Shown: positions 1,237 through 59,434 of the stretch, one piece after another
Layout of the letters: each line of letters opens with the position of its first letter
Numbering within the stretch: position 1 is the first letter of the stretch
Assembly (NCBI GenBank): GCA_964016885.1
Contig: OZ024740.1
Location: forward strand, 261,702,001 to 261,766,000
Reading direction: 5' to 3'
Origin: Eledone cirrhosa
Lineage: Eukaryota
Length of the DNA: 64,000 bases
Notes under the pieces: model-generated
What the model saw: the letters and a program-made list of their open reading frames with translations, nothing else
Databases searched by the model: none
Told to the model about the DNA's origin: nothing
Program-made: the position numbers and the translations under genes

Positions 1237-1296
1237 TTTCATTCTGAAGATTGAAGGAAACTTTTTTTGCTTTTAAGAAACCTCTGGTGAATGGAT
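1237..1296 (+). ncRNA. Degenerate minimal type-I hammerhead (same family as 2778-2837)
   Basis: CTGAAGA 1244, stem II TTGAAG..CTTTTAA, GAAA 1277, CCTCTGG, then TG instead of TH (probably inactive). Confidence 0.55.
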
Positions 1297-2310
1297 TAAT
1301 TGCCTTGTATGGCTTTATTACTTTACTACTATATATACGTTTATGTAAGGTTCATTTGTCTTATTAATACTGAGCTTTACACATACACACATGTATATGT
1401 GTGTGTGTATGTGTATGCATGTGTGTATGTATGCGTGTATGTGTGTATATATATATATATATATATATATATATGTATGTATATGTATATATGTATATAT
1501 GTATATGTATGTATGTGTATATGTATGTGTATGTATGTATATGTGTGCGTGTGTATTTATTTATTTTTATGTATGTGTGGGTGTGTGTGTGTGTGTGTAT
1601 GTGTGTGTGTTTGTATTTGGTTGTGCGTTCTTTTGATATATACGTATTTGCATGTGTATAATTGTTTAGCTATGTATGTATATGTGTGTTTACGTATTTA
1701 TATGTGTGTGTGCGTTTATATATTTTTATATTCTTGTATGTATATATATATATATATATATATATATATATATATATATATATATATATATATATATATG
1801 TGTGTGTGTGTGTGTATATAATTACATATACACATGTGTGTTTATATTATATACGTGTACGTGTTTGTGTATGCATGTGTATGTACGTGTTTATGTATTT
1901 GTATATGTATATTTATGTGTGAGAGTGTGTGTATGTGTTTACTATTTCGTACGTATGTATATGTCCTTTTGTGTGTATTACTTACCACGCGTGTCTGTCC
2001 TGTTAGCTGGGGCATGTATCGCTGTCAAAAGTTTGTTAATATATATTTATATATTTTTTTCTTATATTTATTTGCGTGTGTGAATATGTAGTGGAGTGCA
2101 TTCATGTATGTGTATGTATGTACGTTGTATGTTTGTGTGAATGTATGTATGTGTGTATATATATGTGTGTGTGTATGTGTGTGTGTGTGTGTATATGTGT
2201 GTGTGTATATGTGTGTGTGTGTGTATGTATGAATGTATGTATGTGTATATGTGTGTATATATGTGTATGTGTGTGTAGGTGTACGCTCTTTATATATATA
2301 TATATATATA

Positions 2311-2469
2311 TACAATATTAAATAAATGGAAAACTATATTTATAAAACCATATCTATTTCATTATATATATTTCGGGGATATCATATTGTTAATATGATA
2401 TCCCCGAAATATATATAATGAAATAGATATGGTTTTATAAATATAGTTTTCCATTTATTTAATATTGTA
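2311..2469. repeat. Perfect fold-back palindrome centred on a hammerhead stem II
   Basis: Arms of about 78 bp around GGGGATATCATATT-gtt-AATATGATATCCCC, followed by GAAA TATATA TA. Confidence 0.9.
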
Positions 2470-2777
2470 AATATACTCCAAATATTTGTCGAGTGCTTTT
2501 ATATCAGTTATAAATATTTACTAGTTGTAACCCAACAATTTTAAATATAACTTTCCATATATATATATATATATATGTGTATATGTATATGTGTATGCGT
2601 ACATTTATGTATATGTATATATGTATGTGTGTGTAAGTATGCTTTTGTGTTTTTTTGTGTGTGTTTGCATGTGTAGTTTTATTTTATTTTTCCTTTCCTT
2701 TTCCCTTTTCCAGCCTCACTTTCATATAGATTGCATTTTTGTTTTTAGAATCCATATTCAATAAACAAACCAGGATT

Positions 2778-2837
2778 TTTCATTCTGAGGATTGAAAGCA
2801 AAACTTTTTGCTTTTAAGAAACCACTGGTAAATGGAA
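2778..2837 (+). ncRNA. Minimal type-I hammerhead ribozyme
   Basis: Stem I tttcatt/aatggaa; CTGAGGA 2785; stem II TTGAAAGCAAAA/TTTTGCTTTTAA; GAAA 2818; CCACTGG; TA cleavage site after 2830. Confidence 0.8.
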
Positions 2838-55899: not shown

Positions 55900-58800
55900 C
55901 TACTCTTTCATATTATGTATGGATTTGTCTTCTACATTGTTGTAAGATTTAATATGTTTATTGTCGGGGCTATCTTTCCGACGGATTGCATTGTATAGTG
56001 TTTTGGCCACTACATCATGCCTCATAGGTAGATAGTACCGTGACAACATCTTGGGAGAGCTGCTTATGGCACGGGTGTTATCTTCGATGTTAATTCTGCA
56101 AAGTCTGCATTTGTTGTCACAGCTAGGTGTTTTGCCTGCATCGCTAGTTCTTTTGAGAATCAGGTATTTTGTATTGAATTCCTGTGGTAACCCATATAGC
56201 GGTTGTTGGTCCAAGATAGACTACTTTACTTATCTATATAACTCTCATTCTGGAGCCACCTGGCAACATATCCATGCATGATTTTTTGCTGATAAGCATG
56301 CAGTTTTTCATCCATGGATATACTACGATATTGCTGGGACAATTTCCCTGTGTTGGAGTTTTTGATTATCATGCAGGGAGTATCTTTCAAAAAGTTCCTT
56401 CCCAACTGTCATGATGTGATTTTATCTGTCTCATGCAGACAGACTTGCTCAATAGATGGGCTCCTGCACTTAGAGGTTTGTAGATGTTATCGGAGGGATA
56501 TAATGCGACACTCAAATGCTGACCTGACTGATGTTAAGCCTAGCCTCCCTGCTTACGTTTCAAGTAGAGGCGGTCTATGTCACTGTTAATGTAGAAGTTT
56601 CCGGTGTTGTTAAGAATTTTTCGGGTTTTAACATCAATTGCTCGGATTTTGTCTATCGTTCATCGAGTATTTCAAACGTTGGTGTTAGGACAGGCACAGC
56701 AAACACATAGTGAGCCACTATTTTATTGTTCGCAGAGATTTTAGATGACCATATTTTTCTTAATCTGGTGTAATATTCCCTAGATACACGTTCCTTGTTA
56801 TAGATACCATCATAGGATATATTCTTATCTATCCCTAGGTATCTGCAGCAGTCCTCGTCAGATATAGGTGAAACAGTTAGGCCATTAATAAAAATATTGC
56901 TAGATTGGGTTGTAGTTTTTCTCCGCATTACAATCATATATGCACATTTAACCTGGCAAAACTACATTCCTATACCATTTAAGAAAGTCGTAGCCAGGTC
57001 AAGATTTTTTTCATCCCATTTATGTTCTTGGCATAGAGTTTCATTGAGTTTCAGGTCATCCACAAAGAAGTTATGGGTTAGGCTCGTATTTCTGTCCGCC
57101 TTTGAAACAATTATGAATCTTCGCATTTCTTGATCAGAAAGGAAAAGGAGTTTAATGGCAGAACAAATAGTAGCACAGAGAGATTGTTTCCTTGAAATAT
57201 ACCTCTGTGATATTTTATTTTATCAATGAAAATAGAGTCCTCCTTCTCTGTTTTTAACTTTAGGATAGTAGCCCAAGAAGAAGATAGATTCTATATGGCT
57301 CCGATAATAGTGCCTGGAATTTTAGCAAGTCGGATGGCCTATATCATCCAAGAGTGTGGAACAGAATCAAAAGCTTTCCTGTAGTCCAGCCAGATTGTAA
57401 CCATACTCCTCCTAAGTTGTCGCCCCTCTGACATCGTGGTTTTGTTAATTAGGAGTTGTTCAGCACACCCAAGACACCTTTCTTCACAGCTACTTGCTCA
57501 TTTGTGATGATGTAATTACTGTGGAAGTGATCTTGGAGAAATAGGTTCAGGCAGGGTGTATACAGTTTAAACATCAGGTTCTGGCATGCTATGGGTCGGT
57601 AGTCGTTTGCCAAGTGGGTGTCTTTTTTCTAGGGGACTAATACTGTTTGTGCTAATGTCAACTACCCTGGCATATGTGCATCTCCCTTGAGAGCTTGCTG
57701 GTAGAGGTTGATAAGATACACCCGATAGAATGTCAGTTTTTTTTACCCAGTATCCGACAATCATGTCTTTTCTTGGTGTTTTCTTATTTTGGAGTTCTCC
57801 TATCACAGTCTCAAGGGTATCCTTATTTATTTCGTATGTTTTTGTTGTAGTGCAGGGGCAGTAGTTCTTTTGGATTTCATTTAGCCACACTGTATATTGG
57901 CTGAAATTTTTCCTTTTCTCCCATATTTTTCTCCAGAAGGAGTCTATGTCTTTCTGGGATGGGGCATCAGTGACATTTAATAATTCATATCGCTATAGAC
58001 TGATATTTGGTTTCGTCTGAATCTTTTATTAATTATCTTTCTTTCAGCCACCCTCTTCTGGTATCGAGGTTTCTCGCTGACAGCTCTCAATTCTTGTTTG
58101 AGGGTGATCAGCTTATAAAGAAGAGTTCTGGTTGTACTGTCTACAAACATCTTTCTATTATGTATTTTCATTCTCTGTTGGTGAGGAATGTAGTTTTTGT
58201 GTGTTTTTTGTTGCATATCACATATTCTAGAGTTTCCCGTCAGTCAGCAATCTTTTTTCCTATATTAGTAATATATGATGGTGTTTTTGGTGGTGTTTTG
58301 TTCTTGTTAACATTTCTGTTATGACCAAGATAATGATTCACTGTCGTTGCACAGACATTGATTTGCCAAAATGTAGGGATTTAATTCGTCGTAAATATTC
58401 ACCCATAAGTTCGTCAATAGCACGCAGGATTTCATTAATTGGTTTCATTTTGTTTAGTACTGTTGTTTTATTACGTTCCACGAGAGAGATGTTTATACAT
58501 AAATTAATTTCTCTCCGGAAAGTTTCGCTGATGGTATATTTTAATTGTTTATACTCTTGCTTTTCCAAGCCAGTACAGGTAGAGCGTCAGACACCATGCT
58601 TTGCAGCATAGAGTTTGGGCCCATTACGTTCTGTGTTCAAATCCCACGGAGGTTAGCTTTGCCTTTCATCCTTACGGGGTCGATAACATAAAGCACCAGT
58701 ATTGCACTGGAGGTAATTGCTGGTCTTGTGCCAAAAGTAGAAACAATTATTATTAACAGTATTTTCCAGAACAGTCGAGGTAGATTCATTTGATACATGT

Positions 58801-59110
58801 GGTGTCAAATATTTTACCGGCATAGTTGTTTCAAGGGACTGTTCGTGTTTTGCTGTTGTTTGTTGATTTTCAGTCTGTGTGCTAGAAAGTCTAGTAATAT
58901 GGATGCCTGCAGCACGTGTTGTTGATTGCATGTTCGATCTGGGACATTTAAAATGAATAATATTCATGCCATTTTTATATTCAATTAACGTTGCTTGTTG
59001 GCGAAAATGTTTGGCTGTGAAGTGATTTTGTTCGGGATGTATTTCGTCCCAGTATAGCTTCATTCTGTTCATATAACCAACGGAGAGATTTCTTTCCCCA
59101 TTTTATAACA
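55900..59110 (-). mobile_element. R4/Dong-like RLE non-LTR retrotransposon, degraded
   Basis: YRPI, WLDYRKAFDSVPH, GIFQG, FVDD, YLG, CRLC..RHD; many stops; SINE inserted at 58570-58752. Confidence 0.85.
58570..58752 (+). mobile_element. Nin/Deu-like SINE
   Basis: Match to 14629-14822. Confidence 0.8.
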
Positions 59111-59344
59111 ATTATATAAATCATTAAATTCGTAACTCAAGAGAAATGTGATTGTATGTATGTACATATACTTATATATAAGCATGTTTCTATACACATA
59201 TATATCTGTATGAATGTATATAAGTATATATGTACACACATACGCACACACAAAGACACACACAAAGACACACATATATATATATATACAATAATAATAA
59301 ATGGGAACAAAGAATCAGTATTGCATCATATACATATTTAATTA

Positions 59345-59434
59345 CATATTACATATCTTTCACTACCAATCAGTTCGAGGAACGATCGAATAATGTTCGA
59401 TCCTAACTCTCGAATCGGGAGCTCCTCAGATATG
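59345..59434 (-). ncRNA. Hammerhead ribozyme with long multi-segment stem II
   Basis: Minus strand: catat CTGAGGA GCTCCCGAT TCGAG..GATCGAA-catta-TTCGATC..CTCGA..ATTGGTAGT GAAA GATATG TA atatg. Confidence 0.8.

Follow-up and report, generated by a model that had tools for sequence, protein, structure and literature searches.

Minimal hammerhead ribozymes (HHRs) have been described in the pseudo-long terminal repeats (pLTRs) of metazoan Penelope-like elements (PLEs; PMC4209133), in the Poseidon PLE of Anolis (PMC11167929), and in metazoan retrozymes that lack long terminal repeats (non-LTR retrozymes), whose non-coding tandem units carry a type-I HHR each (PMC7229834; 10.64898/2026.07.22.740005). 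The minimal monomer was reported to be inactive and dimers to be weak (PMC4209133), and cleavage was described as protein-assisted with uncut RNA as template (PMC11167929). In this study, we analyzed a 64,000-nt stretch of the Eledone cirrhosa genome (hereafter the window; C1:261702001-261766000 of 3.0 Gb; contig OZ024740.1; 36% G+C, many microsatellites) together with a genome sample. An earlier interpretation made from the letters of the window (hereafter the sequence-only reading) had listed 22 HHRs. All of them are real type-I motifs of an already described kind, which is unusually abundant here. We consider it probable that these minimal motifs, of which several stand at PLE 3′ ends in pLTRs and the others likely have the same kind of source, are for the most part inert passengers that would need a second same-strand copy.

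The window motifs agree with the minimal HHRs of PLE pLTRs (PMC4209133) in being type I with a short stem I, a long stem II in which the 5′ base is often unpaired, and a small palindromic stem III, in the U3-A8 covariant, in the many heterogeneous families per genome, and in occurring mostly as single motifs, with opposite-strand pairs 100-700 bp apart and few motifs within full PLEs. They differ in that, in some families, stem II measures 85-116 nt or position 4 is a C. With metazoan non-LTR retrozymes they share the non-coding tandem units, here with periods of 421, 478 and 310 nt. With Poseidon of Anolis they share the HHR in the pLTR, AT-rich targets, an optional 3′ tail and presumably uncut RNA as template; the open reading frame starts inside the ribozyme in Poseidon, whereas here the first ATG follows ~135 nt after it.

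Materials and methods

The strict descriptor comprised CUGANGA, a closed stem II, GAAA, a self-complementary stem III (at least 60% self-complementarity), UH, and a stem I score of at least 3.5. A looser scan gave several chance matches per shuffle at low score; when the score threshold was set lowest, each shuffled window had 8.7. A direct-repeat search of the window was swamped by microsatellites, and further PLE frames in the window were linked by tblastn. The genome sample covered 1.788 Mb outside the window, consisting of 59 ten-kb stretches at round coordinates, in which small chromosomes are over-represented, and 120 stretches inside 23 genes; 1.198 Mb were gene bodies and 0.59 Mb other sequence. 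Gene bodies, which may contain nested genes, were delimited by matches to myosin or dynein exons that lay collinear on one strand; a T-over-A skew of 0.04 supports the strands. From the sample, 12 matches in AT-rich satellite were dropped as false, and eight AT-rich UUGANAA singletons were judged doubtful or false. An AT-rich satellite of ~32 nt at the sampled loci L039:7671-8278 and L058:9179-9361 imitates the U3-A8 descriptor and is a source of false matches. The resulting 143 matches (124 from the sample, 19 from the window) formed 49 clusters at 80% identity, or 41 without the doubtful ones. Family copies in the window and the 1.79 Mb were gathered with sequence profiles and without regard to structure; 8 of 17 seeds had enough rows and were counted.

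Identity of the hammerhead motifs

The type-I core was present at all 22 listed sites, the given coordinates corresponding to the lowest stem I base within a few nt, and three additional sites were found (Table 1). The strict descriptor gave 11 matches in the window and none in each of 40 local dinucleotide shuffles, a control proposed by the sequence-only reading itself; an earlier version of the descriptor gave seven matches versus a shuffle mean of 0.03. The looser scan recovered 21 of the 22 sites in their own register. For 52442+ it chose a longer chance register, and this site was read by hand and via its relatives.

Thirteen sites had been called complete folds and nine variant or weak. 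All 13 have the canonical core (one with weakened stem II) and 11 pass the strict descriptor. The other two are 7564-, in which stem I has 4 bp and stem II an internal mismatch common to the family, and 48191+, in which two substitutions weaken the base of stem II. The other nine comprise six variants and three broken copies. Three variants (32081+, 41901+, 45041+) have a C at position 4, which is common to their relatives and would be expected to lower hammerhead activity. Two (35680-, 45291-) are U3-A8 covariants, and 50790+ has a 2-bp stem I, as does its whole family. No close relative of 45291- was found by BLAST, unlike for the other variants, whose relatives have the same features. Among the broken copies, 1237+ has a G at the cleavage position, and stem I of both 47258+ and 52442+ has lost its 5′ strand, which is retained in relatives (6 bp in relatives of 52442+). 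Rfam found no hammerhead in the window at the gathering score and none among the matches listed at E<=10 (150 of 306), which agrees with the proposal of a large, mostly unannotated complement.

Conservation and covariation of the fold

In families A, B, C, D and K, core cells differed from the seed in 0.9-4% of cases, compared with 16-41% in stems and flanks (for the 30 rows of family A, 3/319 core cells and 275/1035 stem cells). Compensatory changes were clear in these five families and in the 3-8 pair of family F, the cells counting sequences and not independent events. Stem II of family A had 81 two-sided pair-keeping cells versus 20 broken ones, and stem I of family B (14 rows) had 12 versus 3. 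The 24 broken cells in stem I of family C stemmed from a 2-bp subfamily. Within families C and F, the pairs C3-G8 and U3-A8 were swapped. The compensatory changes concerned stems I and II. As judged from the alignments, the constraint between subfamilies is a sign of selection in the source elements rather than in every copy.

At the fourth stem II position, an internal mismatch of one base (often C.C) recurs in the otherwise different families of 23662+, 12758-/52941- and 7564-, and may represent a tertiary contact. In family A, the splice-donor-like GGTATGTC lies 15-50 nt upstream of the core and is kept across diverged subfamilies; a splice-donor-like GGTATGT upstream of the hammerhead is retained in one superfamily. 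As a general feature, the splice-donor motif was rejected (41 families, 2 observed vs 1.9 in shuffles, p=0.57).

Stem III, partners and predicted folding

The palindromic stem III noted before was confirmed as a perfect palindrome in 83 of the 143 matches, under a descriptor that itself demands self-complementarity. In the monomer, stem III has at most 2 bp in 124 matches. A same-strand family partner was present within 4 kb in 18 matches, only an opposite-strand partner in 41 and none in 84, the counts of partners being biased low by the edges of the 10-kb loci and by descriptor misses. Compared with metazoan non-LTR retrozymes (PMC7229834; 10.64898/2026.07.22.740005), tandem copies are a minority here (18 of 143).

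Folding energies, which are equilibrium predictions without tertiary contacts, favour the double hammerhead in tandem arrays, i.e. the dimer mode assumed by the sequence-only reading. In three arrays, the forced double hammerhead was 0-1.8 kcal/mol above the best fold and two monomers were 15-20 kcal/mol above it. For 47713/48191, the double hammerhead was 7 kcal/mol above the best fold. With an inverted arm present, or for the pair 25396/25578, the active fold would cost >100 kcal/mol. Copies showed no accumulation of 5′ ends at the site of cleavage (within 3 nt of it in 5 of 330 rows, a set that contains some low-complexity noise and in which every query carries the ribozyme), in line with uncut RNA as template (PMC11167929).

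Carrier elements

The near-full PLE of the window is bounded by direct pLTR repeats of 98% identity with an HHR in each. It has RVT_1 and GIY-YIG Pfam matches at 41935-44633 and 116 relatives, many of them with both domains. Five window sites lie directly after PLE frames; 32081+, 47258+ and 50790+ follow such frames by 0.3-0.6 kb. For the PLE ending in 23662+, ~20 of 40 scored genome copies (query 21900-23775) span the endonuclease (EN) domain to the HHR. The CX4CX2C linker in the reverse transcriptase (RT)/EN frame 49325-50521 fits the Neptune linker of PMC8557442. Over all matches, a PLE frame was located within 3 kb upstream on the same strand in 19/143 and on the opposite strand in 7/143, and for 14 of the 49 clusters the sample contained a PLE frame upstream on the same strand, in some cases as a chance neighbour.

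In short stubs, the 3′ end is fixed and lies 40-200 nt beyond the cut, a tail is optional, the 5′ end varies or is inverted, and (TA)n is found on the flanks; PMC8557442 and PMC11167929 describe this layout. Inverted 5′-truncated arms, optional 3′ tails and microsatellite targets are present as marks of PLEs. The median distance to (TA)>=8 was 109 nt versus 506 nt at random places (p=0.003). A fixed 5′ end for the 52556 family was rejected, as two copies reach further upstream. Genome DNA searches with 52590-52716 and 52521-52716 gave no match, although copies exist.

The 6994 family forms ten intact tandem units with a 420/422-nt period at C1:49.58 Mb, most of 20 loci of this family are free of an attached PLE frame, and pairs of the 47713 family recur at a 478-nt period. 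These two families, and not most other sites, consist of tandem non-coding units, and their units of 421 and 478 nt fit non-LTR retrozymes. Together, the pLTR pair around the RT and GIY-YIG frame, the sites after PLE frames and these tandem units support the PLE/retrozyme origin claimed earlier. Window sites without a PLE frame look like 5′-truncated or inverted 3′ stubs by (TA)n, or like non-coding tandem retrozyme units. Two HHR arrays lie inside myosin genes, one in sense orientation as a tandem dimer of 467 nt accompanied by an inverted arm (L115:5212-6099), the other antisense and made up of six 310-nt units (L128:809-2806).

Genome-wide number

Three core types together gave 124 motifs in the sample, i.e. 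one per 14.4 kb or ~208,000 per genome (bootstrap 161,000-256,000); the CUGANGA core gave 93, i.e. one per 19.2 kb or ~156,000 per genome (bootstrap 114,000-201,000). Without the eight doubtful singletons, 116 motifs remain (~194,000 per genome). Shuffles of the sample gave 0-2 matches per core type. As the descriptor overlooks 6 of 25 window sites, three of which are intact-looking variants or nearly so, the count is not inflated overall. With 19 matches versus 4.4 expected, the window is enriched 4.3-fold, a value reached in 0.04% of resamples. The density of one HHR per 3 kb, which had been extended to the genome on the condition that the window is typical, was over-extrapolated about fourfold.

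Published HHR counts are ~9,000 in X. tropicalis, ~4,000 in coelacanth and ~2,000+1,300 in S. mansoni (PMC4209133), >6,000 in coral and 126,247 in axolotl, i.e. one per ~223 kb (PMC7229834), and 235 Rfam hammerhead matches in giant squid (PMC6962438). The descriptors of PMC4209133 and of this study differ, so its counts and the 150,000-210,000 motifs estimated here are not strictly comparable. By term search, ribozymes are not mentioned in the main text of a 2026 octopus repeat annotation (PMC13282606), and searches of the openly accessible literature on hammerheads in octopus, cephalopod or mollusc genomes or on their density gave no comparable count.

Hammerheads in gene bodies

Motif density was the same in gene bodies (82 in 1.198 Mb) and elsewhere (42 in 0.59 Mb; p=0.85). 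In genes, 36 motifs were sense and 46 antisense (p=0.32). Without seven doubtful matches, 31 of 75 were sense (41%, 95% confidence interval 30-53%), and counted by insertion event there were 14 sense, 21 antisense and 16 both (p=0.31). As control, short interspersed elements (SINEs) in 1.2 Mb of gene bodies gave 180 matches with 107:73 in favour of sense (p=0.014), and frames of long interspersed elements (LINEs) and PLEs had no strand bias. Exclusion of HHRs from introns is ruled out; no intronic depletion was observed, in contrast to the relative exclusion from Xenopus introns that Li et al. 2026 report (10.64898/2026.07.22.740005). The counts gave no sign of strong selection against cutting within introns; sense copies may have a mild cost, or a mild antisense bias may exist. 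Cleavage deep in an intron may be tolerated, so that the orientation test bounds harm, not activity. The proposed cutting of intronic transcripts is thus weakly supported, given the unchanged density, the sense share, the many copies without partner and the predicted masking by inverted arms. Putative circular RNA from tandem arrays is plausible.

Features of the window

All HHRs and their carriers are listed in Table 1. In addition, three partial or decayed hammerheads are present. At 25033-25168, two 3′ halves of the 2778 family meet inside stem II and form a perfect palindrome; 28110-27992 (-) holds a decayed copy of the 47258 family, and about 51226-51251 (-) the 3′ half of another hammerhead family. 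Other mobile-element pieces at 2-388 (+), 3739-5551 (-), 15858-16250 (+), 39402-41179 (-), 56958-58195 (-) and 62902-63900 (-) comprise a Pif1-like helicase fragment and several LINE-type RT/endonuclease frames. A very abundant SINE-like repeat of ~190 nt occurs at 14626-14820, 26269-26397, 31871-32063, 33298-33496, 46746-46942, 58571-58751 and 60966-61151. A long inverted repeat, whose arms are at 35980-36102 and 36153-36275, has a tRNA-like sequence at its centre (36131-36202 (+); Rfam, 39.3 bits). For a host gene, 118 frames from 16 chosen segments gave a single sub-threshold match, to a C2H2 zinc finger at 3453-3623 (+; E=5e-4).

Table 1. HHRs and carrier elements in the window (positions within the 64,000 nt; "." marks a feature on both strands).
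Position	Strand	Feature
1238..1295	+	HHR with G at cleavage position, decayed member of 2778 family
2778..2837	+	HHR, canonical core, could fold as monomer (stem III of 3 bp, 3-nt loop)
6733..7302	+	~1.35 units of ~421-nt non-coding tandem unit (retrozyme-like), flanked by (TA)n runs
6994..7036	+	HHR, canonical core, palindromic ACUAGU
7564..7621	-	HHR, canonical core, 4-bp stem I
12393..12506	-	HHR, additional site, stem II of 85 nt, 5′ strand of stem I altered where inverted arm joins
12758..12812	-	HHR, canonical core, stem III AUAUAUAU
20358..23771	+	PLE, broken RT/EN frames, ~1.3-kb 3′ untranslated region, ends in 23662 HHR
23662..23727	+	HHR at 3′ end of PLE 20358..23771
25343..25697	.	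Head-to-head inverted pair of 175-nt 3′ stubs, 23662 family
25396..25462	-	HHR, left arm of 25343..25697 pair
25578..25644	+	HHR, right arm of 25343..25697 pair
30041..32330	+	PLE RT/EN fragment and 3′ end, SINE inserted at ~31871-32063
32081..32200	+	HHR at end of PLE 30041..32330, variant with C at position 4, stem II of 96 nt and stem I of 3 bp
35245..35289	-	HHR, canonical core; family elsewhere follows PLE EN fragments
35680..35773	-	HHR, U3-A8 variant, stem III 3 bp with tetraloop
41147..41852	-	Inverted 5′-truncated arm of PLE 41859..45197
41859..45197	+	Near-full PLE, pLTRs 41859-42057 and 44999-45197, RT frame from ATG 42070, frameshifted GIY-YIG to 44633
41902..41936	+	Minimal HHR in 5′ pLTR, C at position 4, AAUU
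45042..45076	+	Minimal HHR in 3′ pLTR
45290..45382	-	HHR, U3-A8 variant
45854..45983	-	HHR, additional site, U3-A8 variant, left arm of perfect head-to-head pair
45982..46111	+	HHR, additional site, U3-A8 variant, right arm of perfect head-to-head pair
47253..47342	+	HHR, broken copy, inverted arm replaces stem I 5′ strand, 486 nt after PLE EN fragment 46266-46772
47441..48351	+	Partial tandem, 478-nt period, inverted arm upstream
47713..47791	+	HHR, canonical core, stem III 3 bp with 3-nt loop
48191..48269	+	HHR, tandem copy, weakened stem II base
49144..51085	+	5′-truncated PLE, inverted arm 49144-49351, RT/EN frame 49325-50521 with CX4CX2C linker
50793..50830	+	HHR, 2-bp stem I (family-wide), 3′ end of PLE 49144..51085
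52444..52479	+	HHR, broken copy truncated at core
52556..52594	+	HHR in ~200-nt 3′ stub (52521-52716) amid (TA)n runs, optional 3′ tail in other copies
52941..52996	-	HHR in short stub amid (TA)n runs
59344..59435	-	HHR, canonical core, 61-nt stem II

Discussion

Because stem III is too short in most monomers, partners are few and 5′ ends do not lie at the cut, we read the ribozyme as one that would work in tandem source transcripts and be mostly silent in truncated insertions. Selection would act on it in the source elements, whose tandem transcripts may fold a double hammerhead via the palindromic stem III, perhaps with help of PLE protein. This would release unit-length RNA, which may circularise. 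PLE reverse transcription would start near the 3′ end and usually stop early, so that each insertion would carry one hammerhead from uncut RNA. A lone copy would have no partner, and where arms are head-to-head or inverted, the motif would be hidden in a long hairpin; since a second same-strand copy would be needed for cutting, most genomic copies are predicted to be inert. All cleavage steps of this scheme are inferred. It agrees with the inactive monomers and weak dimers of PMC4209133 and with the protein-assisted cleavage and uncut template of PMC11167929. Several points weigh against it: a stem III of 3-4 bp can form in 19 of the 143 matches, which may be able to cut as monomers, no PLE frame was linked in the sample to most of the 41 plausible families, covariation was weak or unreadable in family G (little variation) and in J and stem II of F (alignment gaps), the HHR sense share of 41% was below the 59% of the SINE control (Fisher p=0.04 by events, 0.009 by copies), and the partner counts and folding energies have the limits given above.

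A chance origin of the folds in AT-rich, microsatellite-rich DNA, for which the loose matches in shuffled windows and the false satellite and UUGANAA matches could be quoted, has practically no probability left, and for the listed sites it is refuted by the lack of strict matches in shuffles and by multi-copy families with conserved core and covarying stems. It is also conceivable that most families are stand-alone non-LTR retrozymes spreading as their own circular RNA units, and not truncated ends of coding PLEs. This holds for a minority of families; for the majority we find it doubtful. The 421-nt arrays and largely PLE-free loci of the 6994 family, the 478-nt recurrence of the 47713 family and the many families without linked PLE frame fit such units, but inverted arms, a partial tandem and (TA)n targets mark even the array families as inserted in the manner of PLEs, the five window sites follow PLE frames directly, and both classes are reported as one lineage (10.64898/2026.07.22.740005).

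Finally, a sizeable subset may be active in host transcripts as monomer-competent copies, sense tandems or trans dimers, where it would cut introns or yield circles at small cost or in a co-opted role. Monomer-competent matches such as 2778+, 47713+ and 35680-, a sense share under one half and under the SINE control, intact tandem arrays predicted to fold as dimers, and abundant circles from metazoan retrozymes (PMC7229834) would be in line with this. However, we rate it as unlikely in view of the equal gene-body density, the orientation counts in genes, the 4 sense versus 5 antisense monomer-competent matches, the masking inverted arm on the sole sense tandem in a gene, and 8 of 9 Xenopus dimers that stayed uncut in vitro (10.64898/2026.07.22.740005). 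Slightly more improbable still is that, within what would be among the densest hammerhead complements recorded (~one per 15 kb, at least 40 families, several per long gene), a monomer-competent or unmasked-tandem subset cuts nascent host RNA or makes abundant circles, with PLE inverted arms as a silencer that makes the rest tolerable to the host. We therefore retain the reading of source-element ribozymes carried along in mostly inert insertions.

The kind of element was already described, and this genome adds scale, with an estimated 150,000-210,000 motifs in at least 40 families invisible to Rfam, as well as variants with a very long stem II and exchanges between C3-G8 and U3-A8 within families. 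It has been called unclear whether host RNA is ever cut by PLE hammerheads (PMC8557442); with ~one motif per 15 kb inside genes, the genome of E. cirrhosa is a test bed for this question.

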